32,000 nt of DNA from Ignavibacteriota bacterium (lineage in GTDB: Bacteria; Bacteroidota; Ignavibacteria; Palsa-1295). Made by a program: the position numbers and the translations under genes. The stretch lies in NCBI GenBank assembly GCA_963787835.1, contig CAWBEI010000002.1, positions 335,690 through 367,689 on the forward strand, given 5' to 3'. Of the stretch, positions 1,627 through 18,320 are shown in pieces. The notes under the pieces are model-generated. The model had not been told where the DNA came from. It searched no databases and saw only the letters and a list, made by a program, of their open reading frames with translations. Within the stretch, counting starts at the first letter, position 1, and each line of letters begins with the position of its first letter.

Positions 1627-4600
1627 GTGTCAATGAAACCATTGGCACCCTTTGTGTCATACTTCAATATGGTCAATACATTTCTTCTCGTTCTGCATAA
1701 AGTTTTTGTCAACGGTTTTGTATCCTCCGGTTTTTCAAGGATTCGTAGAGGATCTCTTCTTTCACTTGCTCTTCTAGCCGGTATAGGCTGGTATGCCCTT
1801 CGTGAAACTAACGCTCACGAAAACGGGATAACGGGGCAGACGCAAAAATCGACGAATGCCGGGTGTTCCTGTCATTGTTCGAGTTCCTCCTCCAGCACGA
1901 CGGTCACGTTAACTGCTTCGAGTGGCTACTCTCCGCTTACCACTGAGCCAAATACAACGTATGATTTTACCATTACGGTCGCGAACAGCGACGAAAGCGA
2001 TGGCGGATGTGATATATCAACATACTCCGGTAATGGGCTGACGGCAGGAACTGGTCTATATGCGTCCAACGGAGAACTGACACACAGTAGCCCAAAAAGT
2101 TTTTCTGGAAACGGGTATTGCAGTTGGACTTTTACCTACACCACCGGTTCAACCGCAGGATGGGATACGATCTATGCTACCGGCAACGCGGTCAACGGGG
2201 ATGGCAGTGATGACAATGGCAATTGCGATGACAAGTGGAACTGGGCCCCGAAATTTATTATCCACATAATTGAACCGACAAAGCGAGCATCGCTAAGCCG
2301 AGAACTCGATCGCGCTTGGGCAACTTCGTGTCGGTCACCGTGTTGCAGATTCTCTCACGATCGCTTCTTATGGGGATACCACGATCACGATCAGCTCAAG
2401 CGCAATGAAGGGCGGCTCCCCCTTCTCGAGTTATCCGACAACAACGAACCGCACGATCGCAACAGGTTCCTTCGAGATCGATAGTGCAATTTTCGCTCCT
2501 ACTTCTCGCGGTACATTTCACGACTCGCTTATTTTCAATACCAATTCCGATACAGTTCCACAGCAACGTATGGGACTGGCTGTGAGCGGCCAAGGCATTC
2601 AGGCTATTTTTAACTCGACGAATGGAACAAGTCTCGCATTTGGGAATTTACATGCCGGAGACACCGCGACACAAACATTCTCTTTCTCGAATACAGGCGA
2701 CGATACACTCTTCCTGCAAACACCTTCTATCTCCGGTAGTGGATTTTCCATTGCTTCTGGGCTTTCAGCGTTTACCTATCCTCCGAACCAATCCGGAAGT
2801 GTTGTTGTGCAATTTGCACCGACCGCGAAACAATCGTACAGCGGAACCCTGAGCTTCTCGGCCTCGGATGGTGTATCGGCACCGACCGTGTCGCTCAGCG
2901 GGAATGGCATCCTGCCACAAATTCAAGTATCGAGTTCTGATAACCTCGGTACCATTCGCGTGGGACAGACCTTGGATGGCTCAGTTACGTTTCAAAATGT
3001 TGGGAATGATACGCTGCACATATCAAACGCTACGCTCAGCCAATCGTCCACATTCTTTAGCATTGGCTCGTACGATCAGTCCGTTATTCCAAATAGAAGC
3101 GACACGATGCAAATTTCTTATACACCGAACGCGGAAGAAACCGACGACGCAACGCTTCATTTCTCGACTGACGACCCCAACGATTCGGCAGTAACGATCT
3201 CAATCAGTGCTACCGGCGCCCTCCCCCACATGGTAGTCGAAGAGAAGAACGATACTGTAAATATGGGGCAAATAAAAATAAACTCCAGTACGACCGCTAC
3301 GATCGGCATCGCCAACAATGGAGGGGTTGACCTTACTGTTTCCAGTGTCAGCGTAAGCCCACGTCCCTTTGCGCTCGATGGAAGTATCCACATCGTGAGT
3401 GCCGGAACAACTTCGAGTGTAACGGTGGGGTTTTCGCCAACAGTAGCTGGAACCTTTACCGGGGAGCTCATCGTGCAAGGAGACGATCCGAATAATGCGT
3501 CGGATACGGTTTATCTCTCTGGCACTGGCATTACCACTGCGCTCTCCATCGATCCCAGCAGCGTCGATTTCGGACGAGTTCCCATCTTCGCGGATAAGCT
3601 GGATACGATTACCCTCAGTGATTCCGGGAAGGCAAATGTAACGATTTACAGTGCACAACTCTCTCCAGCAACAGGCGCGTTTAGCGTCGTCGGAGCGACG
3701 CCAACCCAGGTGCTTGCCGGAGGATCTGCCGTTATCGTTCTTAACTTCGATCCGGATTCGAATGTGATTTATTCTGGCATACTGACGCTAACGACCGATG
3801 ACGCCAACACGCCGATCAGGACGATCGCTCTCAGCGGGCTTGGCGTAAAGGATCCGTTCACGGCGACTCCCTCTCAAGTCGATTTTGGGCAGGTATCGGT
3901 TTTGACGACCGTTCAGGACACGATCACCATGAATAATGCCGGGACCTCGAGTGTAACGATCTCGAATGCTCAGCTTTTGCCGGCTTCCGGCTCATTTACT
4001 ATCGTTGGAACTGTTCCAGATCAAATCCCTGCAGGAGGCTCTGCAATAATGATCGTCAGTTTCCATCCCGATACCGCCGGCCAGCTACTCCGGAACGATC
4101 TCGCTGACCACAAACGACGCCAGCGTTCCGATCCGCAGCATTACGTTATCTGGAACCGGGATCAAGGGTGCCCTTTCTGTAAATCCATCCTCCATTAATT
4201 TTGGCACCGTGTTGATTGGCCATGATTCCAGTATCACTGCAACGCTCCACAATACCGGCCAGGCAAGTATTGATATTGATTCGATCATGCTCACTGGTTC
4301 GAATAATGCCGGATTCAGATATGGTGCATTTTCCATCCCTCTGACCATTTTGGCCGGGAATTCAACTACCATGAATATAAGCTTCTCGCCTACCATCGCG
4401 GGAAGTTATCCTGGCAACGTACAACTTATTTTGCAAGACGGCACCTCGATAAATATTTCGCTTCAGGGCGTTGCAACAGGTGCCGGAGTATCACAAAACG
4501 AATTCAAAGCATCCCAGTTTTCGCTATCGTTATCGCCGAACCCGGCCGGGAACTCTGTCCTTGCACATGCTTCCCTCGCGAGACCATCAGAGACCCTTCT

Positions 4601-4778
4601 GGAGATCTTCGATGCCACTGGGCACATGGTGCTTTCCCTGCCGATCGGAATGCTATCCGAAGGCAACTATGACATTTTCGTACCAACAGCAAGTTTGGCG
4701 AATGGCAGCTACTTCGTCCGTGTGAGTAACACGAATGGGGATGCTGCCGAAGCGCAATTGGTGATAGAAAAACAATAA
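1627..4778 (+). pseudogene. large repetitive cell-surface protein with a T9SS-type C-terminal sorting domain, interrupted by two +1 frameshifts (near 2296 and 4082)
   Basis: Three consecutive ORFs (1627-2484 frame 1, 2405-4198 frame 2, 4209-4778 frame 3) continue one protein. The roughly 100-aa repeat pattern (..FG.V.VG......T..N.G...L.I........F......P..I..G.S....V.F.P...G.Y.G.L.....D......I.LSG.G) runs straight across both junctions once the frame is shifted by +1. The last ~80 aa (SLSPNPAGNSV...GSYFVRVSNTNG...LVIEK) resemble a T9SS type A CTD. The N-terminus has a hydrophobic signal/anchor segment. Confidence 0.7.
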
Positions 4779-6410: not shown

Positions 6411-6525
6411 TGTTTTATAATAGATTCGCTAAGAAGAGGAAATGACATGAGTATGTTCCGAATCATCTAAGAATGATACCAGGTCTTGGCTCGAACAATG
6501 CATCTAATATTTTTTTTTACAAATT

Positions 6526-6657
6526 CATTTAATGAACTGTGGCGTTTCCGAGCCAATTTCGCCAATATGTCTTTTAGAAATAGGTGCCCTTTAAACGCAA
6601 TTGGGTACTGTCCTAATTAGACTTGGTTCCTAAAACGATATAGTTTTTGTTGTTAAG
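6526..6657. repeat. composite conserved non-coding module (W part 6526-6610, Z part 6620-6657)
   Basis: The W part shares CATTTAATGAACT ...(about 40 nt)... AGAAATAGGTGC with 16970-17035. The Z part (GACTTGGTTCCTAAAACGATATAGTTTTTGTTGTTAAG) matches 12788-12825 at 36/38 positions. Confidence 0.8.
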
Positions 6658-6659
6658 GC

Positions 6660-7004
6660 TTACATCCCAATGCTTCCCATAAGTTGACGCACGATGCTCT
6701 GAATTAAATTCGGAGTGACTTCATTGAGCGAAAACGGTTGACCGGCATCTTGTTCAACGATAATTTTACCTTTACGAATCGAGAGCGGGATCATCCTTGT
6801 GATAGTAGGAGACTCCGAATAGCCGGAAAAATGAATACGAAAACATCTCTCTTCCAGCCCATTTTTAGTTTCGGTAATAGTCAAGCTGCACCGATCTGAG
6901 TCGTGGATTATTTCTGCGACAATATCGGGGTTTTGTACTAACCTCATTTTAATAAGGTCGAAGGTTGGAAGCATTATCTGGTTCGCACATTCATCAAAGT
7001 TCAT
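6660..7004 (-). CDS. hypothetical protein (114 aa)
   Basis: It is the only long ORF in this interval and I recognise no motif. It is flanked by conserved modules Z (3' side) and X (5' side). Confidence 0.5.
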   Translation of the reverse strand: MNFDECANQIMLPTFDLIKMRLVQNPDIVAEIIHDSDRCSLTITETKNGLEERCFRIHFSGYSESPTITRMIPLSIRKGKIIVEQDAGQPFSLNEVTPNLIQSIVRQLMGSIGM

Positions 7005-7060
7005 ACTCTCGGAACGCCAGAGATTCGAGTGGCATTCCCATCCCCACGGGCAGGTTCGGT

Positions 7061-7092
7061 GCTTTCAGGTTTTCCGATTGAGGAAACGATAC
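7061..7092 (+). promoter_or_regulatory. conserved 32-nt leader/inverted-repeat module Y, copy 1
   Basis: GCTTTCAGGTTTTCCGATTGAGGAAACGATAC lies 26 nt upstream of the ATG at 7119. It is 31/32 identical to the reverse complement of 12703-12734 and contains a TTTCC-GATTGA-GGAAA hairpin. Confidence 0.8.
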
Positions 7093-7118
7093 GAGGAATA
7101 TTGCCGTAAGAAGAACTG

Positions 7119-7463
7119 ATGGATTATCGTGGTCAAGAAGCATATTATGATGAAAAAGGAACACTTCGCCGAAAAAGCGACGGCGTGAGGATTGTTCTCA
7201 CTCTAAAAGAAAGAGAGCAATATAAAAAAGAAGGCTATCTTTCTAACGGCGTAGAGACCGAGCCTCTTAGAGAAGAAAAATTGCAACGTCAGGGTTGTAT
7301 GCTTTTATTGCTGAAGGATAAGTCACTGAACGACAAAGAAACTGAGCGGCGCATCAGCGCATTCGCAAAACAACTTATTAGAGAGAACAAAGGCAATCCT
7401 GACTTCTGGGTCATTCGCGCCCCAGAGGACAATACACAACCCTCTCATTGGACGGTTTTATGA
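7119..7463 (+). CDS. hypothetical protein (114 aa)
   Basis: ATG-initiated ORF directly downstream of module Y. I recognise no family. Confidence 0.5.
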   Translation: MDYRGQEAYYDEKGTLRRKSDGVRIVLTLKEREQYKKEGYLSNGVETEPLREEKLQRQGCMLLLLKDKSLNDKETERRISAFAKQLIRENKGNPDFWVIRAPEDNTQPSHWTVL

Positions 7464-7684
7464 TCGTCGGATGGAGCGACATATTTGTCTAAAATCTTGG
7501 TAATCTCATCTTCTGCGGAGCATTCTAAGCAAATGGCATAGTAGGTAAGGGCGAACGACTCTTCGTTTTCATATTCTCCTTTAACCGATTTAACGACCTC
7601 AACGGTATGCTTATCGTTAGTTGTGCATTTCGTATTCGCAAATCGTTTTTTAATTTCAGGGGGAATGCGAGGGATTGTTTCCAT
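7445..7684 (-). CDS. hypothetical protein (79 aa)
   Basis: ORF convergent with 7119-7463, overlapping it by 19 nt. No recognisable motif. Confidence 0.35.
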   Translation of the reverse strand: METIPRIPPEIKKRFANTKCTTNDKHTVEVVKSVKGEYENEESFALTYYAICLECSAEDEITKILDKYVAPSDDHKTVQ

Positions 7685-7872
7685 ACAAATTCAACATTCG
7701 CTGGAGTTAAAGCATTCTTCAGGATCGAGCGCGCTTATTCGAAGCCGCTTTGCTCCATCGTGGCTTTCTTGCATAATACTCCGCACGGCGCGCCCGAAGC
7801 TCTTCGGTTCTTCGGAGGTCGTGTTTGTGTTTGGCGCGGAGTTCATTGGAACGGGTTGATCGAGGAGTCTTT

Positions 7873-8793
7873 TCATAAGGATGCTCCGGTCAATTCCTCA
7901 TACGTCAGCCGTTTGCCGAAGAGCATCGTGGCCGCCTTGATGAATCTGCCGGAGTCATTGTCCTTTCTGTTATCGTACCGGAAACCCTGTTCGTCAAGGT
8001 AGCGGTCAAGATGATAGGGTTCAACGTGGATGTACGTGCCTTTGAGGGCGCGCTTCACCAGCGACCAATAGTTCTCAATGGTATTCGAATGCGTGTTACC
8101 CTTGACGTATTCACCGCGTTTGTGATTGACAGTCGAGTGATCGTAAACGACACCGAGTGCCTTGTACGAATTCGCTTCGTCACTGTAAAGGGTTGAGCCG
8201 ACCTTCACGGTTGCAAGCACTTGATTCTGAAGCGTCCGTGCGTGAGTGTTCTCAATGACGCGCGCCTGTACTTTGCCACCCCGTTCAACGGCCCCGAACA
8301 CGATGGTCTTACCATCGCTTCCGCCACGGGATTTTACTTTGTTCGCGTGACGATTGCGCTCGGCACCGCCGAAGTAACTTTCATCTATCTCGACAGAACC
8401 CGTAAGTTTTTCCCCCGCATCCTTGGCAATACTTTCTCGGATCCTATGCCCGACATGCCATGCGCTCTTTTGTGTAATTTCTAAGGCCCGTGCTATTTCG
8501 TAGGAGCTAATTCCATTCTTACAATTAACGACCATCCACACCGCAGGAATCCATTTTGTAATGGGAATTGGCGAGTTGTGCATGACCGTCCCGGCCTTCA
8601 AGGAGAACTGCTTCTTGCAGTCCCGGCATTTGAAGGCCGGACGAGTACGCATTCCGTAGATTGCTGTGGAGCCGCACTTTATGCAGCATCGTTCACCGCC
8701 ATGCCAATAAAGCTCCGACAGGAATTCGACGCATACCACTTCCGAGGAGTAGTAGCGTACCGCTTCGAGTAGGCTTTTGGGTGTTTTGAGCAT
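7873..8793 (-). CDS. IS1595-family (ISXO2-like) DDE transposase
   Basis: 306 aa with an N-terminal zinc ribbon (CIKCGSTAIYGMRTRPAFKCRDCKKQFSLKAGTVMHNS). The catalytic region has VEIDESYFGG, LYSDEANSY and HSNTIENYWSLVKR, characteristic of IS1595 transposases. I could not identify the element ends. Confidence 0.85.
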   Translation of the reverse strand: MLKTPKSLLEAVRYYSSEVVCVEFLSELYWHGGERCCIKCGSTAIYGMRTRPAFKCRDCKKQFSLKAGTVMHNSPIPITKWIPAVWMVVNCKNGISSYEIARALEITQKSAWHVGHRIRESIAKDAGEKLTGSVEIDESYFGGAERNRHANKVKSRGGSDGKTIVFGAVERGGKVQARVIENTHARTLQNQVLATVKVGSTLYSDEANSYKALGVVYDHSTVNHKRGEYVKGNTHSNTIENYWSLVKRALKGTYIHVEPYHLDRYLDEQGFRYDNRKDNDSGRFIKAATMLFGKRLTYEELTGASL

Positions 8794-8961
8794 GATCGTG
8801 AGTTATTAGGAACGTTCCCGGTGGAAATTGGATTAAATAGAAATACCCGATCATTAATAATAATGATCGGGCAAGTTGTGGCCCAAGCCACACGATTAAA
8901 TTGTGCCAGAATTCGCGTTCTGGTAGTAGCATGATGAGTGCGCGGGGGCGTTCTCGTCATG

Positions 8962-8994
8962 TACCCGGAGTGTGATTACTCCGGGTTTTCTTTT
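8962..8994 (+). terminator. rho-independent terminator on the + strand
   Basis: ACCCGGAGT-GTGATT-ACTCCGGGT hairpin followed by TTTTCTTTTT. No annotated + strand gene lies upstream; only a hairpin-rich stretch (8800-8960). Confidence 0.6.
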
Positions 8995-9044
8995 TCCGAA
9001 TGAAGAAGCGTGGTCGATGCGGCTCATACGGAAAGAAAATCACA

Positions 9045-9126
9045 TAAAAAACCCCAAGATATTACCTGAAAAACTCGCTTGCTGGCGTTGAGTCCCGACC
9101 GAAGCCGGGTAGGTAAATCTTGGGGT
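9045..9126 (-). terminator. long compound hairpin terminator on the - strand
   Basis: On the - strand, ACCCCAAGATTTACCT pairs with AGGTAATATCTTGGGGT (one bulge). The stem encloses a CGGC-UUCG-GUCG tetraloop hairpin and is followed by TTTTTT. It lies about 165 nt downstream of the protease gene stop (9291). Confidence 0.6.
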
Positions 9127-9290
9127 CAAACCCAAAAAAGTTTCAGTTGTATCGCCAGCAAGACGATGTAGGCTTTCACCTGACTTGGTTGCTAACGTAT
9201 CATTACACTGTTCGTTTCAGTTCGCATGAAAAAAGTGGAAACTCTGAAAGCGGATTTGGGTTTCCATCGTGGCCTTTGGAACTAAATGGG

Positions 9291-10817
9291 TTATTTAGTA
9301 ATCGCCAGATTGATGTAGCTCACCATATCTCCCACCCTAACGCGGCATACATATTTTCCCGATGGGAGCGTCTCCGTGCCGAGCGAAATGGATTGTGGGC
9401 CTTCGTTTGAATAACCGTTCATAACCTCCATTATTTGTTTTCCCAGGGGATCATAAATAGCAATCTGCGTAAAGCTGGATTCTACTGTTGTAAATTTCAA
9501 GGTCATTCCACCGCTTGAAGGATTTGGGAAAACTTCGGGGTTAAACCAATCGGGCTGTTGAGGGGTGGAAACACCCAACGTCGTATCTGAATGAGTCGGG
9601 CAATAAAGTTTCGCGAACATGCAGGAATCATCGCTCCCAAGTCCGCGTGGAGCGATGTTAGGTTGCGCCTGCTTAGATCCCATCAACATCCAATATCCTG
9701 GTATGCTACTCTTACAATAATTATAGTTATTAACGCAGGTGTCTCCACGAACAATCGTATCTGGATGTAGTAACCCGAGCCAATGGCCGATCTCATGCTC
9801 GATTATTTCCTTAAAGCTGAAATCATAAAACCCTTGATTTGCCGCGCCGGGGTCTGGGGCAGGTCCCGTGTACCATCCCATCAATGGACTCTGGTGTAGC
9901 TTGTAACCAGGAATAGGCTGAAGGGCATCGTTTCCATTTTGGTAGAAGAAGCTATTTGTTGCATTGTAAGTAATAAACCGATAATTTGAGTTCGGACATG
10001 CGCCTCCATCGGGGCATCCCGGATGCCCATACGTCCATGCAACAGGATAGCCGGCTTTTTTCAATCCAGATGCTTGATAAGTTCCTTGAAAGTGAAGGAT
10101 ATTAGTGTCCGGAATTATGAGGATACAGCAGGTTGTGTCGCCAGTAAATCCGCAAATTCCAAGCCACGCATTTAGATCGGATTGAGCATCAGAACTTGCA
10201 CCACCCGTGTTCCAAACCTGATCGTAATGCACATCTGAGCCGTTGGCGTATGATATAGAGTCACTTATGTAAGTGTTGTATCTTTCTATATCGATTTCAA
10301 AGATTGAGTAATCTTCTCTATCGCAGTCATAAACCGATAATGCCTCTTCATATTCTTCGTCATAGTCATAATTATCACGATTAGGAGGAACATCTGGTTC
10401 ATGTCCATCATGCACTTGGTGGAAATCGGTATCCCATTCGTCTAACCCGGCATTATAGGTTCCGGTATCCAAGACCTCACCCGGATCGGGAATGCAGCCG
10501 GAGAAAACATCATAAGTATCTGGTAACGAAACAGGTTCTGGCGGCTCTGGAACAGGATCGGTCGGTTGATCGAATACACTCGTGTCAGGTGGAATTACAT
10601 TTACACAACCCGGTATTTTCGATTTGGAGGGTGTGTAGCTTGGTGGTGGGTCATTCGGGTTTGTCGAACATTGCACGCCTTGAGCACCTGTAACGAAACA
10701 AAATACGTAAGGGAAACTCTCATTCCCGCATGGAATAGGGCAATGTATCGCCTGTGCCAACCCAATAGACGAAACGAAAAGGGAAGCAGCGATTAGAAGA
10801 AGTGGAAAAGACTTCAT
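9291..10817 (-). CDS. secreted zinc metalloprotease (metzincin, M43-like) with a T9SS-type C-terminal sorting domain
   Basis: It has a signal peptide (MKSFPLLLIAASLFVSSIGLAQA) and the zinc site HEIGHWLGLLH (HExxHxxGxxH). The C-terminal ~85 aa (FPNPSSGGMTLKF...GKYVCRVRVGDMVSYINLAITK) resemble a T9SS CTD. Confidence 0.8.
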   Translation of the reverse strand: MKSFPLLLIAASLFVSSIGLAQAIHCPIPCGNESFPYVFCFVTGAQGVQCSTNPNDPPPSYTPSKSKIPGCVNVIPPDTSVFDQPTDPVPEPPEPVSLPDTYDVFSGCIPDPGEVLDTGTYNAGLDEWDTDFHQVHDGHEPDVPPNRDNYDYDEEYEEALSVYDCDREDYSIFEIDIERYNTYISDSISYANGSDVHYDQVWNTGGASSDAQSDLNAWLGICGFTGDTTCCILIIPDTNILHFQGTYQASGLKKAGYPVAWTYGHPGCPDGGACPNSNYRFITYNATNSFFYQNGNDALQPIPGYKLHQSPLMGWYTGPAPDPGAANQGFYDFSFKEIIEHEIGHWLGLLHPDTIVRGDTCVNNYNYCKSSIPGYWMLMGSKQAQPNIAPRGLGSDDSCMFAKLYCPTHSDTTLGVSTPQQPDWFNPEVFPNPSSGGMTLKFTTVESSFTQIAIYDPLGKQIMEVMNGYSNEGPQSISLGTETLPSGKYVCRVRVGDMVSYINLAITK

Positions 10818-10856
10818 TGTTTGCTCCTTGTGGTTTTGGGAAGTGAATATGAACGA

Positions 10857-11903
10857 TTATGGATGGAGAATATTATAGATTCTCGCGCGAAGTCTTGACT
10901 TCCAGACCGCAACCGTTAGACCACCAGAAATGGAGGCACCAAGTCCGAAATCGTCGTTAGGATCAACCACATGACCGCTTACGACTCTATACATCGCTCC
11001 TTGATTTCCAAAGACACCCCAATAAGGTTGAATGCTGAAATAGCCATTGGCGGTATCAATTCCAATTCCTGCGATTCGAAGGAACACGATGTATTCTCCT
11101 CCCGGCCTGATCCACCATCCGGTCGAATCAGACAAAGCAGGCGAAAAAGGCATTTCATCACCTGCAATTGCACTTGCCCATTCGGGTGAATATTCAAATT
11201 GAATACACGCACCACTATCAGCGCGAACTGCATACGTTGGCCAAGTTGAAGCATAGCTCATGGTTGTAATCTCATTGGATTTCCGGTGAGTGTGCATGTC
11301 TTCGCCGATACAGAGTGGAATTTTTTGTCCCTTGATTTCATCAAGGATTGTGGAATTAACCAATACTATGTGTGGGGTAATGTTATCTGACGAGTTATAC
11401 TTGACGATGGTATCCCCGATAGTCACGTCCGCGATAATATCGGAAGCAAGAATAAAACCTGTACGACCGGTATCGCCTATACCATTTCCAATTTGATTAG
11501 CTAATATTGGAATTGAGTTACCAGGGTTACCTTTATAGTGCCAAGAATAATCTGGGTGCCCTCCAAGAGGCCATGAACTGATCTCCCATTGATATAATGA
11601 TAACGGATTATCGTCACTAACTTTGTAAAGCATCTCGGCAAGGAACGTCATCGTGTCATCGTGCCCAAGATTCCCGATCCATTTGTTGATCAAGTTCCAT
11701 TGCGTTGAGCGCATAAGTTCATCGGCCCAAAGGTATGCGCTTGCCACGTCGGAAGGTTGACTATCATATAGTGGTGGGACGGTCGTGAGAAGTGGGAGGC
11801 TATACTTGATTAAACCTGGATAATTCGGCCCCGTTTGGCTTCTCACAGCAGGTGCGGCAAAAAAACCTGCCCAAAGAAAGAGGATGAACATGATTCGTTT
11901 CAT
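10857..11903 (-). CDS. hypothetical secreted protein (about 348 aa), upstream partner of the metalloprotease
   Basis: The ORF extends to 11945. The Met at 11903 gives MKRIMFILFLWAGFFAAPAVRSQ, a signal peptide. There is a 39-nt gap to the protease gene on the same strand. I recognise no family. Confidence 0.6.
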   Translation of the reverse strand: MKRIMFILFLWAGFFAAPAVRSQTGPNYPGLIKYSLPLLTTVPPLYDSQPSDVASAYLWADELMRSTQWNLINKWIGNLGHDDTMTFLAEMLYKVSDDNPLSLYQWEISSWPLGGHPDYSWHYKGNPGNSIPILANQIGNGIGDTGRTGFILASDIIADVTIGDTIVKYNSSDNITPHIVLVNSTILDEIKGQKIPLCIGEDMHTHRKSNEITTMSYASTWPTYAVRADSGACIQFEYSPEWASAIAGDEMPFSPALSDSTGWWIRPGGEYIVFLRIAGIGIDTANGYFSIQPYWGVFGNQGAMYRVVSGHVVDPNDDFGLGASISGGLTVAVWKSRLRARIYNILHP

Positions 11904-12248
11904 AAAAACCCTTCCAGAAATGAATATTTGAAGTATGAAATTCAACTAACAGCACAAAGATACAACACTTTTTCCATCAAGTTTTAGATTTGATTTTCCG
12001 AATTGCAGGAGAATAGTAGGGTATTTGCAGGTGCTTTTTTCAAATGAAATGGGCGTTATCGTGGCTCTTTTCAACGGTTCATCGTGCATGATCAATTATT
12101 ATGGAGGTTCTTATGATAATCGTGTTGCGAAGCATATTTTGTAAGAAAGCAACGATGGAGTAAGGAGGATAGAATCGGTGTTCGAAAGAAAGTCCGATGC
12201 TCACATGCCAATGAAAAGCAACGGACTTCACCTCAAACAAAAATCATA

Positions 12249-12455
12249 ATGCTGAATGTACCGAAAACACTACTAAAAGAATTCGACGATATTATGAAAG
12301 CAAGCAAATGTGGTAATGACCGCTCCCACGTTATTTACGGAGATATAAACTGGGTTGTACGCGATGCGGCTGGCCTAAATCGTTACGATTGGTATATTAG
12401 ATGTAGCGAGAATGGGTGTTCCTTCACGGATCATGGTACTATCTGGCGGCCTTGA
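12249..12455 (+). CDS. hypothetical protein (68 aa)
   Basis: ATG ORF whose 3' end overlaps the convergent 12375-12677 ORF by 81 nt. One of the two may be shorter or spurious. Confidence 0.3.
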   Translation: MLNVPKTLLKEFDDIMKASKCGNDRSHVIYGDINWVVRDAAGLNRYDWYIRCSENGCSFTDHGTIWRP

Positions 12456-12677
12456 ATCGAGGGGTAAATGAACTTCATTCCATTCTTCATTGGTTTGAGG
12501 CATAACATCGAAAAGCGGATCGTCTTTGAATTTTTCAACAATGTACTCGATAAATTCTTGATCTTTTGGACATTGCAATACCGCACCCGTGTGATAAGGA
12601 TTCCCTCGCTCGGTGAATCGTGTTTCCCTCAGACGAAAATAGATGGCAACGTATTCTTTTTGTTCATCAGAAATCAT
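12375..12677 (-). CDS. hypothetical protein (100 aa)
   Basis: The ATG lies 25 nt downstream (on the - strand) of Y module copy 2. This is the same spacing as for the ORF at 7119, which supports a real start. Confidence 0.5.
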   Translation of the reverse strand: MISDEQKEYVAIYFRLRETRFTERGNPYHTGAVLQCPKDQEFIEYIVEKFKDDPLFDVMPQTNEEWNEVHLPLDSRPPDSTMIREGTPILATSNIPIVTI

Positions 12678-12702
12678 AATTCTACTTAAGGTAACGCCGC
12701 TT

Positions 12703-12734
12703 GTATCGTTTCCTCAATCGGAAATCCTGAAAGC
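12703..12734 (-). promoter_or_regulatory. conserved 32-nt leader/inverted-repeat module Y, copy 2
   Basis: The reverse complement reads GCTTTCAGGATTTCCGATTGAGGAAACGATAC, 31/32 identical to 7061-7092. Weaker similarity continues to the start codon. Confidence 0.8.
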
Positions 12735-12787
12735 GGCGTAACTTTATTTGGAAACCTCTGGTTGATTCTAATATATTAGTGCCATTT

Positions 12788-12825
12788 GACTTAGTTCCTA
12801 AAACGATATAGTATTTGTTGTTAAG
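12788..12825. repeat. conserved non-coding module Z, copy 2
   Basis: GACTTAGTTCCTAAAACGATATAGTATTTGTTGTTAAG matches 6620-6657 at 36/38 positions, in the same orientation. As with copy 1, it abuts the 3' end of a small - strand ORF. Confidence 0.8.
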
Positions 12826-13069
12826 AGGTTTTCGCTTCAGCCATCACAAAAACTCGATGACGGTAATTACCTTGTTCGCCTTCTTGGAAAAGACAGTGAT
12901 TAACGCGGGAGATTATGTAGTCCATCTTGCTATGATTAAATTCTTCACCGACTGATGGAATGACCGGTGCATGGTTGAGTGGGTATTCGCACTCGAACTC
13001 ATACATAATCTGACCGCCTTCACGGAGAACGTATTGCACGGCGTATGTTACGCTTTTGATTGAATCCAT
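12821..13069 (-). CDS. hypothetical protein (82 aa)
   Basis: ORF flanked by module Z (3' side) and module X (CTCGGAACGCC at 13093-13103, 5' side). This is the same layout as 6660-7004, but the protein shows no obvious similarity to it. Confidence 0.45.
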   Translation of the reverse strand: MDSIKSVTYAVQYVLREGGQIMYEFECEYPLNHAPVIPSVGEEFNHSKMDYIISRVNHCLFQEGEQGNYRHRVFVMAEAKTS

Positions 13070-13198
13070 TGTGTTGTTGTTTCCTTTCGACCCTCGGAAC
13101 GCCTTAAATTCGTGGCTCGTTCATGTCTCCCGAATGCGTTATTATCATCGAATATGGCGTTGAGCCACACTCCTGAAATTATTCACAATTAAAACAAT

Positions 13199-13447
13199 AT
13201 GTCTATGCAAATTAAATTCAACCTTACGGGCAAATCGAACGGCATTAAAACTTACGATGTAAAGAGCGGAGAGGCTACTCTTACCACCGCAAGAAGATTG
13301 CCGGGTGTAACGGGCTATGAAATCATCAATCCCCAAAACAACGAAGCAAAACAGGGGTTGGCAGGGGAACTCTTACGTGAGTTCTTCCCAGACCTACGGG
13401 GCGCTGCTTTAGAGATTGAAGATCAGGACGGCATGGCCATTATGTAG
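13199..13447 (+). CDS. hypothetical protein (82 aa)
   Basis: ATG ORF divergent from 12821-13069, followed by a strong terminator. No recognisable motif. Confidence 0.45.
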   Translation: MSMQIKFNLTGKSNGIKTYDVKSGEATLTTARRLPGVTGYEIINPQNNEAKQGLAGELLREFFPDLRGAALEIEDQDGMAIM

Positions 13448-13458
13448 GGATGTTCAGA

Positions 13459-13484
13459 GAAGGGCGGCCCAATGGCCGCCCTTC
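13459..13484. terminator. bidirectional rho-independent terminator
   Basis: GAAGGGCGGCC-CAAT-GGCCGCCCTTC hairpin followed by ATTTATT. It lies between convergent genes ending at 13447 (+) and 13487 (-). Confidence 0.75.
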
Positions 13485-13486
13485 AT

Positions 13487-14179
13487 TTATTGTAACACAG
13501 TATCCCATCCCCACGCACTGTTCGCAATCCCTGCCATTTGAGCCGGAGTGCAACCGATCGAGGAATGAAAGCGCATGAAATTGTAATGATAGAAGTGAAG
13601 ATTCACTGCGGCTCGTAGGTTATCGAGCTTCTTGCTCCAAGCGTTTGTCAGCCTTGTCAGTCGCCTCAACCCCATACGCATCGTGAGGTTTTGCCTCTCG
13701 ATGTAGCTGGTGGAAATATCTTCTACCAGTGGTGCGCCGAATATGACTCGTAGCGTTACTCCGACCAGACGGGCGGGTGAGTAACGACGCTCCCCAATGT
13801 ACGCCTCGGAATACTTTTTGTGAACTTGTCCGTAATCAATGGCACTCTTTCCATAGACCTTGTAAATCGCACTCACATAAGCATTCCAGGCATCGGTGCT
13901 GAGTTGGTAGCGGGTTTCGATGCGATCTCGAAGCTGTTCGAGAAGCTTCATAGCACTCCACCCATCACGCTTGCCAACATAGAATGCTGGTACGAGCTTG
14001 CTATCTGCATCAATGGCAACGAAGGTGTAAGCGTCACCATATTCCGCTTTATCAGCTAACGGATCTACACGTTTCTGTTTCTTTCCCACGTATCCCCAGA
14101 CTTCATCGAGCTGTATCCTTGGTAGTGGCTCAGTTTGGGAACTTTCGATATTTTTATACTGAATTATGTTTATGAACAC
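13487..14179 (-). CDS. IS1-family DDE transposase, catalytic domain only (lacks the N-terminal HTH; probably a truncated copy)
   Basis: It has DEVWGYVGKK, FVAIDADSKL, LSTDAWNAY and ERQNLTMRMGLRRLTRLTNAWSKK, which match the IS1 InsB pattern (DEqWgYVG / TDgw..Y / ERhNLnLRq..aRL.R...sFSKS). It aligns with residues ~64-284 of the neighbouring 284-aa copy. Confidence 0.7.
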   Translation of the reverse strand: MFINIIQYKNIESSQTEPLPRIQLDEVWGYVGKKQKRVDPLADKAEYGDAYTFVAIDADSKLVPAFYVGKRDGWSAMKLLEQLRDRIETRYQLSTDAWNAYVSAIYKVYGKSAIDYGQVHKKYSEAYIGERRYSPARLVGVTLRVIFGAPLVEDISTSYIERQNLTMRMGLRRLTRLTNAWSKKLDNLRAAVNLHFYHYNFMRFHSSIGCTPAQMAGIANSAWGWDTVLQ

Positions 14180-14369
14180 ACAAAAGATCGAAGTCGGCGA
14201 TATGGTGAAATTGAAAAACGGCGCAACGGTATTAATGTCCGTTCACGAATTGAACGGACATGGGATAGAATGCGATTGGTTAGATAACGAGAATAGATCG
14301 CAAAGACAGACCTTTGCACCTGCCCAACTTATCCGTTTAACCGATTCCCAAAATAGTCAACGAGAATGA
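14166..14369 (+). CDS. DUF2158/YodC-like small protein
   Basis: IEVGDMVKLKNGATVLMSV...GIECDWLDNENRSQRQTFAPAQL fits the YodC pattern (V.vK.GGP.M.V....v.C.W.d......F....L). Confidence 0.6.
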   Translation: MFMNTQKIEVGDMVKLKNGATVLMSVHELNGHGIECDWLDNENRSQRQTFAPAQLIRLTDSQNSQRE

Positions 14370-14523
14370 GTTGCTCCGTTATGAAGGCACCTTCTTGGAG
14401 TTCCCCGTTTTTGCTGAACCATTGGCAAATCCAATGATCTCCTGAGCCTTTGCGATTAACGCTCATTATTGGAGTGCCCTGAATGAATCCAAGATGGACT
14501 AAAGAGCCGGGTTTTATTTCCAT
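14329..14523 (-). CDS. DUF2158/YodC-like small protein (paralog)
   Basis: IKPGSLVHLGFIQGTPIMSV...HWICQWFSKNGELQEGAFITEQL fits the same pattern. It is convergent with 14166-14369, and the two overlap by 41 nt at their 3' ends. Confidence 0.55.
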   Translation of the reverse strand: MEIKPGSLVHLGFIQGTPIMSVNRKGSGDHWICQWFSKNGELQEGAFITEQLILVDYFGNRLNG

Positions 14524-14553
14524 GATTGTAATAGAATTATGGTTATGAAATAG

Positions 14554-14582
14554 AACGGGCTGGGGTGAAGTCCCAGCCCGTT
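14554..14582 (-). terminator. hairpin terminator downstream of the IS1-type transposase gene
   Basis: AACGGGCTGGG-GTGAAGT-CCCAGCCCGTT hairpin, 14 nt after the stop at 14596, with a T-rich tract following on the - strand. Confidence 0.55.
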
Positions 14583-14595
14583 TGCGTTAACACGC

Positions 14596-15450
14596 TTAGT
14601 CAACCGTCAAATCCCGTGTGTCAAGCAGGTCAACCAAGTCACCAATACTCCAAAGGTGATTCGTGAGTCCCGCCTTCATTGCAGGGGTCATTCTAAGGGA
14701 CTGGTGAACCCTCACGAAATTGTAGTGCATGAAGTGCAAAGCGATTGATGCGATATGATGCTCAACGCTTTTCGAGAACCCATTCGTGAGCCGGGTAAAA
14801 CGGCGCATTGACATTCTCATTGTGAGGTTTTGACGCTCAACGATTGATGTAGAAATGTGATCGGCATTCGGATTTCCGAACTTCGGCTGTTTCTCAATGC
14901 TAATAACTTCACCGGGGCTGTATCGCACGTCTGGCGAGTTGCCAGCACCTTTGCCATATTTCTTTACAAGCATTGCATAATCTACACCGTTGACGCCGAA
15001 CGACTCACGAACGGCGGTAAAATAATTTGCATGTGCGTCCGTTGTCAACTGAACGCGGTTAGCGAGACGGCTCGCTACATCACTCATGAACATATAGGCG
15101 TACTCTCCGTCACGCCGTCCTACGAGCCATGAAATGATTAATTTGGAATCTGTATCAATGGCAGTCCAAGTCCACTGGGAACCAACATTGCCGGAAGCTC
15201 TCTCACCGTCCGTGCAATTAGCGTCTTTCTTTCCTACGAAGCTCCAAATCTCATCGGCCTCAACACGTTGCGCCGTGACACCCTTAACATTCTCATCGTG
15301 GAACTTCTCACACGCCGCACCTAAGTCAAGAAGGAGCTTAGAAATGGTATTCCGCGACACGTCAACCATGCGCGAAATCGCACGGATGGAATTGCCCTCG
15401 ACAAGTGCCGATACGATCTGAATTTGTTTGTCTCTGTTTAGCTTGTTCAT
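14596..15450 (-). CDS. IS1-family transposase (full length, HTH + DDE domain)
   Basis: 284 aa with an N-terminal HTH (IVSALVEGNSIRAISRMVDVSRNTISKLL). It also has DEIWSFVGKK, WTAIDTDSKL, LTTDAHANY and ERQNLTMRMSMRRFTRLTNGFSKS. Confidence 0.8.
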   Translation of the reverse strand: MNKLNRDKQIQIVSALVEGNSIRAISRMVDVSRNTISKLLLDLGAACEKFHDENVKGVTAQRVEADEIWSFVGKKDANCTDGERASGNVGSQWTWTAIDTDSKLIISWLVGRRDGEYAYMFMSDVASRLANRVQLTTDAHANYFTAVRESFGVNGVDYAMLVKKYGKGAGNSPDVRYSPGEVISIEKQPKFGNPNADHISTSIVERQNLTMRMSMRRFTRLTNGFSKSVEHHIASIALHFMHYNFVRVHQSLRMTPAMKAGLTNHLWSIGDLVDLLDTRDLTVD

Positions 15451-15781
15451 GATAACTTAAACGGGTTACCCTAAGCATAAGTTTCAGTTTGTTTATTATT
15501 CTTCAAACAAAATAGCATTCGTTAAGAAACCCGCGCCGGAACAATCCCGGCGCGGGTATGGTTAGTATAACCACGAGAGAAGCCGCCCGCCCGCAAAAGC
15601 AAACGGCTCCCCCTCCGTAACGCAAAAGCGTTACGCCTTTCACGGTAATCGTAAAAAGGGTGCTGGTGAAGCCACTAAAGGCTCTAACCGATTCCACGAA
15701 GTAGAAAGCGACAGGAATCAGGCCACCAGCAAAATCAATATTAGGGGCTAATTTCGCCGTAGGAAGCGATTTTAGCCCTTT

Positions 15782-16237
15782 TTATTCATCTTGTTTCGCT
15801 AAATTCCATTCTTTTAACCAGATTAAGTCGCCCTGACGCACGATTCTATCATCTTGTCCAACGCCGATAGCGAAGTTTCGGAATTCAAAAGTCTTGTTTC
15901 CGCTTCCCTTATAGCCGTTTTTAACGAGGTGGTCGTATGCTTTCCTGAGAGAGTATTTGGCTGTTTTCTGTATTTTTAATAGCGCATAGGTCGCATTCGA
16001 TGCCGTCATGCCAGTATAGAGTCCGGGCGACGGTAGATCGCCCTCATCCTCTTCATTCTCGGAAGCATCCTGTTCATCTTCATTTTCATCCGAAATCTCA
16101 ATAAATTGTAGGAGTTCATCCGCCACGCCGGGTTTTAAGAATGAGGCAAGCCGATCATTCTCTTCCTTCAAAATCTCAATTTTTCCATCATTTTCAGCGA
16201 TTTTAGCCCTAATTTTGCTCTCTGAAAAGGTTATCAT
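15782..16237 (-). CDS. hypothetical protein (coiled-coil N-terminus, acidic linker, C-terminal globular part)
   Basis: The ORF is open to 16303, which would abut the tRNA, so the Met at 16237 (MITFSESKIRAK...) is the more plausible start. I recognise no family. Confidence 0.5.
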   Translation of the reverse strand: MITFSESKIRAKIAENDGKIEILKEENDRLASFLKPGVADELLQFIEISDENEDEQDASENEEDEGDLPSPGLYTGMTASNATYALLKIQKTAKYSLRKAYDHLVKNGYKGSGNKTFEFRNFAIGVGQDDRIVRQGDLIWLKEWNLAKQDE

Positions 16238-16306
16238 GATTTTCTCTGAATTATTTTTTGATGTTCTCGGTTCTATGGTTGCTACAAAATGCAAAACAGC
16301 CATTAG

Positions 16307-16383
16307 TAGCGGGGCGGGGGATCGAACCCCGCTCCTCTGGATCGAAAGTCCAGTGACCTACTGCCAAGTTAGTCTATCCCGCT
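16307..16383 (-). tRNA. tRNA, anticodon UUC (Glu) by manual folding; atypical
   Basis: The - strand reads AGCGGGA-TA-GACT-AACTTGGCAGTA-GGTC-A-CTGGA-CTTTCGA-TCCAG-AGGAG-CGGGG-TTCGATC-CCCCG-CCCCGCT-A. That gives a full cloverleaf with a canonical T-loop and U33. Atypical features are an A1:U72 pair, an A7/C66 mismatch, a 12-nt D-loop, G37 and no encoded CCA. Confidence 0.7.
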
Positions 16384-16643
16384 GTTGAACTTAAAGGAAT
16401 TGACCGAGTAAGCCGCCAAGCTTTTACCCGGTCTTTTTCGTTTAAGTGCACCCAACTAACCTTAACGGGTTCGAAAAGATTCATTAGTTAAATGGAAATA
16501 ATGTAGTTAAAATTTTAACGCCTCATTTCAGCAACAACAACTCGAAGCGTAAGACGTAGCTCAATACAGTTTTCAGCGCGTCAGATAAGGACGGAATCGA
16601 CCCGAACGCGCCTGTATGACAATGAATAATTCCCACCACAGAT

Positions 16644-16877
16644 TCAATCTGTTTTCTTCTTCCACCGGGCTTTAGCCGCTTTTTTAGCAATCTCAGACCG
16701 CTTCTCGGCACTTAGACGGGTCGCCCGAAGCTTTCCGCCCTCAGAACCCTTTTTTACGAATACTTCGCGGGGAATGGCTGTTTCTTCCTCGGTAGGCTCT
16801 ATTTGACCCGTTGCATATTGCATGATCTTAAAAGCGCGTTGGTTTGGGTCACGGGGTAGTTTTTTGGGTTTTATCAT
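16644..16877 (-). CDS. hypothetical small basic protein (77 aa)
   Basis: ATG ORF. Its C-terminus (GGKLRATRLSAEKRSEIAKKAAKARWKKK) has a motif common in small proteins of mobile elements. A hairpin lies directly upstream of the start. Confidence 0.5.
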   Translation of the reverse strand: MIKPKKLPRDPNQRAFKIMQYATGQIEPTEEETAIPREVFVKKGSEGGKLRATRLSAEKRSEIAKKAAKARWKKKTD

Positions 16878-16969
16878 AACCCCTTAACGTTGCTTAGGGG
16901 GTAAGCATTGCTATAAAAAGTATAAAACACGAAACAATGGTTCCGAAAATGAGCCACTACCTGAATTGT

Positions 16970-17046
16970 CATTTAATGAACTCACCTCTTTCTTTCATGA
17001 ACTTATGCAATATTTGTTCTTCCAGAAATAGGTGCTCTTAATACCA
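16970..17046. repeat. conserved non-coding module W, copy 2
   Basis: CATTTAATGAACT (16970-16982) and AGAAATAGGTGC (17024-17035) occur in the same order, orientation and spacing as at 6526-6587 (54 vs 50 nt). Scattered matches lie between them and after them. Confidence 0.7.
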
Positions 17047-17102
17047 CTCTCTAATATACGACACTTTTCCCAGACGCCACGAAATTCGAAATTTTCTTTG
17101 AC

Positions 17103-17359
17103 CTCGGAGGCAGACGGCTCAAGCCATGCGGTGTAGCCTTGACCTTTAGGTCACAGTGTGATTTCTTTGTGCTCCGCGACCGTGGCCTGAAGGTCACGGC
17201 TATGCCGCTTCTTTCATTGGGGCGTGATTTGATCTGAGCCAATCATCGAAACCATCACACGAATCACATAAATCATAGTTCAGACTCGGAGGCGGACGAC
17301 GCAAGCCGAGCAGTGTAGACGTGACCTACAGGTCACGGTATAAATTCTTTGCGCTCCGG
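17103..17359. repeat. two direct copies of a ~76-nt REP-like unit (17103-17179 and 17285-17359)
   Basis: Both copies read CTCGGAGGC(A/G)GACG.C.CAAGCC...GTGTAG.C.TGACCT..AGGTCAC.GT...TTCTTTG.GCTCCG. Each contains a TGACCT-nn-AGGTCA palindrome. Confidence 0.8.
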
Positions 17360-17501
17360 TCATAAATCCCCGCACGGACTGCTCCGCTCCCATATCTTCC
17401 ACCACCGCGCGTTTAAATGTGGTTCGTCCGAGTGTTAGGATTGCCCTGAGCCTGTCGAACGGGTCTGGGAACCTGGGGCGTTCGGTGCCGTTCTTGAGTC
17501 C

Positions 17502-17585
17502 TCCAGCCTCCCGCTCCGTAGGAGCGCAATATTTGTAGCCCCCGGTTTCAACCGGGGGTTGAGGAGGGCACAGGAATCATAAGCT
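17502..17585. repeat. REP-type hairpin set on the 3' flank of the Y1 transposase gene
   Basis: The hairpins are CGCTCC-GTA-GGAGCG, CCCCCGG-TTTCAA-CCGGGGG and GCTCC-GGA-GGAGC. The stretch 17519-17560 is an inverted repeat of 18110-18150 (TTTGTAGCCCCCG...CGGGGGTTG.GGAG). Confidence 0.85.
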
Positions 17586-17601
17586 CCGGAGGAGCGGCAT
17601 A

Positions 17602-18069
17602 TCACCCCAGCGCGGTAAAATCGAACAAGTATCGTTCATCGTATGGAATACCAAACGCTTCGAGCAGCGCAATATACTCCTCACGGAATGTATGCTTTTT
17701 ATGATGCGCTTCCTGATTCTGAATGTACGCGATGACATGGTCTAATTGGGAACGCGAATAGGAGAATGCGCCAAAACCCTCCTGCCAACAAAAATGCCGC
17801 GTCATCCACGACTGCTCGTTCAGCCAGAGCGTTGAACTCGCCTTGATGTGCTTGACAAGATCCGAGATCGATTGATCGGGCTTCAAGCCAACCAGAATGT
17901 GGATATGATCCGGCTCGTTTTCAATTGCAATGAGTTTATGTTTGTGATTTTGAATGATACCCGTAATGTATTTTTGAAGTTCCTCTTTATGCTCGCGTGG
18001 GATGAGGTTTTCACGACCTTTGACAGCAAAAACAAGATGAATATAAAGTTGTGTGTAGGTATTGGCCAT
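17602..18069 (-). CDS. IS200/IS605-type Y1 (HUH) transposase, REP-associated (RAYT-like)
   Basis: 155 aa with YTQLYIHLVFAVKGRENLI, the HUH motif (PDHIHILV) and the tyrosine region (GFGAFSYSRSQ). No tnpB is present, and the gene is flanked on both sides by symmetric hairpin repeats. Confidence 0.85.
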   Translation of the reverse strand: MANTYTQLYIHLVFAVKGRENLIPREHKEELQKYITGIIQNHKHKLIAIENEPDHIHILVGLKPDQSISDLVKHIKASSTLWLNEQSWMTRHFCWQEGFGAFSYSRSQLDHVIAYIQNQEAHHKKHTFREEYIALLEAFGIPYDERYLFDFTALG

Positions 18070-18083
18070 TTGGGTGATATTAC

Positions 18084-18193
18084 GCTCCTACGGAGCTAAG
18101 GGGTATTATTCGTGCTCCGCAACCCCCGATTAAAATCGGGGGCTACAAAGATTAGGCTCCTAATGGAGCCATGTAATATTCCGCTCCTGGAGC
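18084..18193. repeat. REP-type hairpin set on the 5' flank of the Y1 transposase gene
   Basis: The hairpins are GCTCC-TAC-GGAGC, CCCCCGAT-TAAA-ATCGGGGG, GGCTCC-TAAT-GGAGCC and GCTCC-T-GGAGC. They mirror the order of hairpins on the other flank. Confidence 0.85.
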
Positions 18194-18320
18194 TTAAAAT
18201 CGCTCAAATTTTCTCCTGCACAATTCATAAAAATTTTCCAGTGCCATTTACGGCACCTTTGTGATTTGGTGCGGTGTTCCTGAATTCGGACTTATTTACG
18301 AAAACGGGTGTTCCACCCTG

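Follow-up and report, generated by a model that had tools for sequence, protein, structure and literature searches.

Inverted 32-nucleotide repeats around a protease operon in a Kapabacteria genome: probable terminal regions of an IS1595-family element with a variable passenger module

A pair of inverted 32-mers brackets 5.6 kb of DNA, including an IS1595-family transposase gene and a secreted-metalloprotease operon, in a 32,000-nucleotide (nt) stretch of the genome of an Ignavibacteriota bacterium (contig CAWBEI010000002.1); this whole stretch is referred to below as the window. With a probability of roughly 0.6, these repeats represent the terminal repeat region of a Kapabacteria IS1595-family insertion sequence (IS) that carries a short variable passenger module, a complete copy of which (E1), together with an inverted remnant of a second copy (E2), flanks the protease operon. 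The two repeat copies are as follows.

7061–7092, plus strand: left copy (B-L), the first 15 nt of which (7061–7075) form the conserved end core GCTTTCAGGTTTTCC
12703–12734, minus strand: right copy (B-R), with the core GCTTTCAGGATTTCC at 12734–12720

The copies of the 32-mer, GCTTTCAGG[T/A]TTTCCGATTGAGGAAACGATAC, are identical at 31 of 32 positions, and the window holds no further copy at up to three mismatches; a match of this kind was obtained in 0/100 shuffles. Similarity between the two sides continues inward, without gaps over 64 nt (7052–7115 and 12680–12743; 78%) and by BLAST over 93 nt (7052–7144 and 12743–12652; 73%), reaching through the ATG and about nine codons of an inward-facing open reading frame (ORF) on each side, at 7119–7463 on the plus strand and 12375–12677 on the minus strand. 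The ATG codons lie 26 and 25 nt from the respective repeats, and the longest exact stretch common to B-L and B-R is 22 nt. A preliminary description of this DNA had reported the repeat pair, the spacers, both ORFs, and the enclosed IS1595 transposase, 362-amino-acid (aa) ORF and metalloprotease, all of which were confirmed, and had mentioned a weaker inward similarity that proved to be longer than described. Absent from it were a third copy of the 15-nt core and three further pairs of repeats (A, C, and X), present in two copies each in the window.

The third core copy links the 32-mers to the transposase. The core pattern GCTTTCAGNNTTTYC is matched exactly at three places in the window, 7061 (plus strand), 12734 (minus strand), and 9251–9237 (minus strand), against 0.13 expected. 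The last of these is located 447 nt from the transposase start and 22–32 nt in from the left-hand limit of the conserved IS unit described below, and is 13/15 identical to the core of B-L (7061–7075) in inverted orientation. The transposase itself covers 97% of annotated IS1595 transposases and matches PF12762 (DDE_Tnp_IS1595; E = 1.8e-41) and the N-terminal zinc ribbon PF12760 (E = 1.2e-08), the composition of a DDE transposase of the IS1595/ISXO2 type.

When metagenome contigs were scanned with the transposase protein, one from an unrelated locus (L014) was identified whose transposase shares 89% amino-acid identity with that of the window. DNA homology between the two has sharp boundaries at both ends (window 9273 corresponds to L014 725; the other boundary lies at 7746) and defines a conserved unit that comprises a structured non-coding region, the transposase, an overlapping small ORF (ORF61), and the junction X. 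Beyond X, L014 2188–2295 matches window 12135–12242, in the right-hand module, at 83%, and L014 2700–2719 agrees with the 32-mer, read as its reverse complement, at 19/20 positions. The order of L014, namely transposase, X, ~0.5 kb (about 480 nt) of variable ORFs, and inverted B (the 32-mer), is therefore the same as that of the window from 8793 down to 7061. The flanks of the two loci differ, and because the cmk-like gene of L014 is only ~35% identical to that of the window over a 34-codon tblastx segment, the L014 host is probably distant from the window host and the element has probably moved between lineages. Another contig, L098, represents the L014 locus from another sample, so the number of independent comparator loci is one. 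The parts of the proposed complete element, and the remnant, are listed here.

~7034–9283, minus strand: E1, proposed complete passenger-carrying IS1595-family element of ~2.2 kb, with approximate tips that we infer from the ends described below
9237–9283, minus strand: left end of the element (IRL), AGTTCC / GCCACGATGG / GCTTTCAGAGTTTCC, with its core at 9251–9237, inverted with respect to B-L; homology with L014 runs from 9273
7746–9273, minus strand: conserved IS core, 83.7% identical over 1530 nt to L014 725–2220
7873–8793, minus strand: full-length IS1595-family DDE transposase of 306 aa, identified by Pfam
7691–7876: ORF61, a small ORF that overlaps the transposase and holds X
7745–7785, minus strand: X, conserved junction just downstream of the transposase and inside ORF61, where homology with L014 ends (7746)
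7445–7684, minus strand: proximal passenger ORF (ORF79; 79 aa), convergent with the 114-aa ORF, with coding-like codon usage
7119–7463, plus strand: distal passenger ORF (ORF114'; 114 aa), with coding-like codon usage and no homologues
12126–12756, minus strand: E2, an inverted remnant of 0.63 kb lacking a transposase and consisting of B-R, ORF100 (12375–12677), and X' (12126–12168)

E1 thus reads, in order, IRL, a 480-nt structured leader, transposase, the ORF61/X junction, passenger ORFs, and B-L. The two ends of L014 (717–761 and 2769–2705) carry three ordered inverted blocks, GGTTCC, GCCACGATG, and GCTTTCAGrrTTTyC; their end-to-end local alignment scores 50, compared with 22.7 ± 4.6 in shuffled sequences, none of which scored as well (0/1000). 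In the window, the alignment of IRL with B-R covers most of the 32-mer with one indel and was equalled in 7/1000 shuffles. Both ends of E1 carry terminal inverted repeats (core 13/15 identical, with the three-block ends of L014 as a parallel), albeit with approximate tips. Since the core occurs no more often than expected by chance among 80 other IS1595 loci, the inverted ends are specific to this sub-lineage. On comparison of the sequences, the 32-mer is homologous to the IS end, the layout is common to an independent locus, and the ends are inverted; the exact tips and any mobility of a 5.7-kb unit are, by comparison, what we infer.

What survives in E2 is X', corresponding to the final 40 nt of the IS core, together with a passenger module unlike that of E1 and the end B-R. 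The X and 32-mer repeats thereby enclose two unrelated small-ORF modules in the window, and with L014 there are three, each with unrelated ORFs between conserved X and B and each with B preceding an inward ORF. The L014 module starts like that of E2 (L014 2221–2295 matches window 12169–12242), and because it belongs to a transposase-bearing element, E2 would appear to be descended from an element that once had a transposase. Codon usage is coding-like for ORF100 and not for a further small ORF, ORF68. No homologues of ORF114' were found among 5.8 billion proteins or of ORF100 among 1.84 billion, and the small ORFs match nothing in Pfam, NCBIfam, or PHROGs.

If these relationships hold, B-L would be the distal (right) end of E1, a complete copy in minus-strand sense, and the core common to its two ends would be the binding site of the DDE transposase. 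B-R would be the same end type in the second, inverted copy, so E1 and E2 would present identical outward-facing ends on either side of the operon, a compound-transposon geometry with inverted arms of which one is a remnant. The inward-reading end probably doubles as the 5' untranslated region of the distal passenger ORF, which would explain the fixed spacing of 25–26 nt to the ATG; such a leader role is plausibly a by-product of the inward-reading end and not the reason for its conservation. Three features expected of an IS1595-family element are thus found in E1, namely the transposase, the inverted ends, and, from the single independent locus represented by L014 and L098 (1530 nt at 83.7% as well as the B end, amid different flanks), an unrelated context; the fourth, a target-site duplication, is not detected.

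Several other results weigh against this interpretation. The alignment of IRL with B-L is marginal, 25/1000 shuffles being as good (p ~0.025), and the conserved core is subterminal, the outermost 20–30 nt of B-L and B-R being poorly alike and the tips accordingly approximate. Only L014 among the independent comparators carries these ends, and transposase relatives at 59–86% identity share the coding region only. At X (7746), the homology of the window with L014 breaks off abruptly, and X could, on these alignments, be the true right end, with B-bearing modules as merely preferred neighbours. No target-site duplication of 7–9 bp is present at the candidate tips of E1, the IS core, or the 5.7-kb unit, near-matches being at chance level, as the preliminary description had remarked for 8-bp duplications. 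The repeat 20-mer has no relevant context in 185,579 species genomes, its six matches being chance or coding occurrences, and a 24-mer of the repeat has no match in Joint Genome Institute (JGI) metagenomes and viral contigs. Lastly, contigs with either of the ORFs that flank the repeats (ORF114 on the left, ORF82 on the right) yielded only the same contigs and arrangement, with no alternative junction or empty site.

Other attempts to define the ends gave similar results. Neither the tips of E1 nor those of the IS core are matched by a direct repeat of 7/8 or better, no target-site duplication is apparent in the L014 end alignment, and a 30-mer of the IS left end has no match in viral contigs. 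Mapping of the tips from L094, L097, L099, L100, and L015–L019 was of no help, homology being confined to the coding region. Classical terminal repeats hugging the transposase ORF were sought and none was found, the best candidate (14/17) lacking a duplication.

The leader at 8794–9273 (minus strand), which separates the transposase start from the left end of the IS, is 480 nt of non-coding DNA that is conserved with L014 and forms long hairpins, two of which are terminator-like (~9127–9045 and 8873–8844). Four pairs show compensatory changes, as judged from two sequences only (e.g., CCCGGC..GTCGGG versus CCTAAC..GTTAGG). The leader has no match in Rfam and may be a regulatory RNA of the element. 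The stretch 8693–8932 does not have coding-like codon usage. In related loci, a divergent XRE-type helix-turn-helix gene is located immediately upstream of a related transposase (L094 4695–6922, L099 960–1163, and L100 410–619), and in L094 a Panacea-domain toxin-antitoxin pair lies immediately downstream, arrangements that are consistent with passenger genes being common in this transposase clade.

The DNA between and around the repeats comprises the following parts.

9291–11945, minus strand: cargo operon of a 362-aa ORF and a reprolysin-like metalloprotease sorted by the type IX secretion system (T9SS), with its own Bacteroidota-type -7 box at 11962–11955
9291–10817, minus strand: the metalloprotease (508 aa; Por_Secre_tail/reprolysin-like)
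10857–11945, minus strand: the 362-aa ORF
6616–6657 and 12784–12825: repeat pair A, direct, 93% identical
7005–7027 and 13090–13112: repeat pair C, direct, 83% identical
7745–7785 and 12168–12126: repeat pair X, inverted, 79% identical
6596–7027, minus strand: left flanking cassette, made up of C (7005–7027), ORF114 (6660–7004), and A (6596–6657)
12784–13112, minus strand: right flanking cassette, made up of C (13090–13112), ORF82 (12821–13069), and A (12784–12825)

The operon sits between the inner end of E1 and the truncated inner end of E2, with the protease stop codon 7–17 nt from the IRL tip. The preliminary description had offered, as one of three readings among which it did not choose, that the repeats are the terminal repeats of an IS1595-type cargo transposon of 5.6 kb. 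The identity of the end stands, the core being homologous to an IS1595-element end both in the window and in an independent contig, but not the extent, because the transposase has a nearer partner end at 9237–9283; the demonstrable element is ~2.2 kb (7034–9283) and the right repeat belongs to a second, truncated copy. That the whole 5.7-kb segment (~7034–12756) might nevertheless function as one cargo transposon, with B-L and B-R as the ends used and the protease operon as mobile DNA, is decidedly unlikely. Both repeats are of the same end type, face outward, and resemble each other (31/32) far more than either resembles the internal IRL (13/15), the operon is tightly packed between them, and removal of the segment would leave two tandem same-strand C-ORF-A cassettes; pseudo-compound transposons are moreover known from IS1595-family members (PMC12561309). 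Against this, one complete IS copy faces an arm that consists of X', a passenger module, and an end only, without transposase or inner end. The best candidate duplication (8/9; 7028–7036 and 12778–12786) is of a kind expected ~0.4 times by chance and does not fit the tips, the repeat has no relevant second context in the collections searched, and contigs with the flanking ORFs disclose no empty site; movement of the 5.7 kb as a unit thus finds no backing in a flanking duplication, an occurrence elsewhere, or an empty site.

A fairly unlikely alternative is that the 32-mer serves two small inward genes solely as a duplicated 5' regulatory region (leader, operator, or promoter), its link with the IS being one of neighbourhood. 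The position of the repeat 25–26 nt upstream of an ATG on both sides, the similarity into the first ~9 codons, the presence of an inward ORF behind the repeat in L014, and the coding-like codon usage of ORF114' and ORF100 would all be accommodated, as would the conserved flanks C and A around unrelated ORFs in the same island and in another contig (L097), while the 5-6-5 palindrome of the repeat bears some likeness to a dimer operator. That palindrome corresponds to the TTTCC-GATTGA-GGAAA hairpin noted in the preliminary description, which is present but weak (5-bp stem, 6-nt loop, -4.5 kcal/mol, z ~-0.5, range -0.4 to -0.6). Its 3' arm is absent from L014, where only the first 20 nt of the repeat are conserved; a long stem forms in the right copy and not in the left; and Rfam yields no match, so that a conserved structured cis-regulatory RNA is not what was found. 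Neither copy has a Bacteroidota -7 box (TAnnTTTG) nearby, whereas the 362-aa ORF has one upstream, and the two inward ORFs lack homologues. A duplicated leader would also leave the third core copy, inverted at the IS left end, unexplained. The earlier suggestion of a duplicated leader is therefore compatible with the favoured IS-end reading as a secondary role, the repeat preceding an inward ORF in all three modules, but its hairpin is not conserved in L014 and it lacks a nearby promoter box of Bacteroidota type.

The arrangement of the small ORFs invites a broader view. A and C enclose two unrelated minus-strand ORFs (6660–7004 and 12821–13069), the latter (ORF82) having coding-like codon usage. 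C-ORF-A cassettes, two in the window and one in L097 (207–548), consist of a 23-nt 5' flank, a 42–60-nt 3' flank, and unrelated ORFs of 114, 82, and 85 aa; the 85-aa ORF of L097 is a DUF2158 protein, and its cassette lies directly upstream of an 84%-identical IS1595 transposase. The motif AAGCCACGATGGA occurs at module boundaries (IS tip, X, and X') at 9275–9263 (minus strand), 7766–7754 (minus strand), and 12147–12159 (plus strand), and at 457, 725, 2196, and 2756 in L014; there are five matches at up to two mismatches against 0.9 expected. It is conceivable, though highly unlikely, that Kapabacteria IS1595-family elements are carriers of exchangeable mini-cassettes and that the 32-mers are cassette-boundary or recombination sites and not plain transposon ends. 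Unrelated small ORFs would then be swapped between the X/B and C/A junctions, with boundaries marked by GCCACGATGG, by a previously undescribed shuffling through the DDE transposase or host recombination.

Inversion of the segment, also raised in the preliminary description, has extremely little in its favour. In this scheme the repeats would be crossover sites, site-specific or homologous, and inversion would switch the small ORF downstream of ORF82. The sites are inverted, ORF82 reads toward B-R, and the 11-6-11-like layout (5-bp inner palindrome, asymmetric 6-nt spacer) resembles, in appearance only, the core sites of tyrosine recombinases; as in Hin/Gin-type systems, Bacteroides invertible promoters, and shufflons, the segment is bordered by a short inverted pair and genes are read through the repeat. 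Unlike those systems, there is no invertase or integrase gene nearby: a Pfam scan of 30 of the larger ORFs across the 32 kb detected neither a tyrosine nor a serine recombinase, and the transposases that it recovered are of the DDE and Y1 types. Two Logan assemblies are colinear with the window, with no orientation heterogeneity among the three, the palindrome is not conserved in L014, a longest exact common stretch of 22 nt offers little to RecA-mediated exchange, and the repeats show homology with an IS end. The inversion proposal is accordingly unsupported and very improbable.

Three further site types were considered and rejected. Integron cassettes and attC arrays likewise place unrelated small ORFs between conserved non-coding flanks (C-ORF-A and X-ORFs-B here), but no IntI integrase is present, no attC boxes or R''-L''/L'-R' architecture are seen in A or B by inspection, without a dedicated attC search, and the conserved flanks here occur on both the 5' and 3' sides of the ORFs and are linked to a DDE transposase. 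A repetitive extragenic palindrome (REP) or paired REP element (REPIN) mobilised by the nearby Y1 transposase does not fit, since the Y1 gene has its own GTAG-type hairpins that are unlike the 32-mer. Similarity to a dif/Xer-like site is purely formal (11-6-11), and none of the Kapabacteria species genomes in the collection searched contains the exact 20-mer.

Short terminal inverted repeats are a feature of the IS1595 family, whose members can give rise to pseudo-compound transposons; Tn7560, formed by ISApl4, is one of these (PMC12561309). Two IS-derived arms with outer ends of the same type bracket a cargo in such transposons as they do here, and an IS pair bracketing cargo is an ordinary kind of mobile-DNA architecture. 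The present case differs in its inverted arms, one of them a transposase-less remnant of 0.63 kb, in carrying a T9SS protease operon in place of resistance genes, and in showing neither a flanking duplication nor evidence of the unit having moved. Passenger genes inside single elements are a second point of comparison. Siguier, Gagnevin and Chandler are said to have described in 2009 IS1595 subgroups that carry passenger genes, the ISPna2+, ISNwi1+, and ISNha5-type 'transporter IS'. E1 resembles passenger-carrying IS of this family in its single DDE_Tnp_IS1595 transposase with an N-terminal zinc ribbon, its terminal inverted repeats, the additional non-transposition genes inside its ends, and its spread between distant hosts. 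It differs in lacking a detectable 8-bp duplication, in the subterminal position of the repeat core, in the structured leader of unusual length (480 nt) that precedes the transposase, and in a passenger that is a hypervariable convergent ORF pair without homologues, bounded by X and B.

If the favoured IS-end reading is correct, an unnamed IS1595-family element with a fast-changing pair of small genes without homologues would be documented in the uncultured class Kapabacteria, and E1 and the remnant would frame a secreted-protease operon in a way that could make the operon mobile. The result matters mainly for annotation, in which the 5.6-kb segment would be resolved into three parts (IS, cargo, and IS remnant), and it would add to the view that, in this lineage, the cmk-recA interval is a hotspot for variable DNA. 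No new mechanism is implied unless cassettes are indeed exchanged.

Judged by its cmk homologues, the window belongs to Candidatus Kapabacteria. The 32-mer pair lies in a strain-specific island at this hypervariable hotspot, because the cmk-recA interval differs in relatives, has a low guanine-plus-cytosine (GC) content, and carries transposases. Three relatives (L011, L012, and L013), whose cmk and recA DNA is 78–80% and 87–89% identical to that of the window, have entirely different genes in the interval (toxin-antitoxin genes, a kinase, or Kelch/T9SS/extracytoplasmic-function sigma factor genes), and 11.8 kb of the window (6470–18231) has no counterpart in them. GC content is 41–46% in the window's interval, compared with 50–57% in core genes, and the interval holds four transposase genes (one IS1595, two IS1-like, and one Y1) and a tRNA-Glu gene.

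Elsewhere in the interval, two paralogous IS1-like transposase ORFs (230 and 284 aa) occupy 13487–15450, with a DUF2158-like small ORF between them (14329–14523). The tRNA-Glu(TTC) gene (16306–16383) is not found at this position in the relatives, and a 173-aa ORF without homologues (15782–16303) begins 3 nt past its 3' end. The Y1 (IS200-like) transposase gene at 17602–18069 (minus strand) is flanked by inverted 48-nt repeats with GTAG-type hairpins (17519–17566 and 18115–18162), like a REP-associated tyrosine transposase, and a second palindrome family, CGTGACCTnnAGGTCACGG, has three copies at 17138–17338. The island is bordered on both sides by an intergenic sequence, GGGCACCTAT...GCATAAGTTCATGAA/AGTTCATTAAATGA, in the form of a ~70% identical direct repeat (6520–6613 and 16945–17045), and this sequence is also situated between genes in relatives (L011 9380–10000 and L094 7250–7413). 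At 1627–4778, ORFs of 285, 597, and 189 aa that follow one another, with Ig-like repeats and a T9SS tail, correspond to a single gene of ~1050 aa in L011 and L012 and may represent a disrupted gene or frameshift errors.

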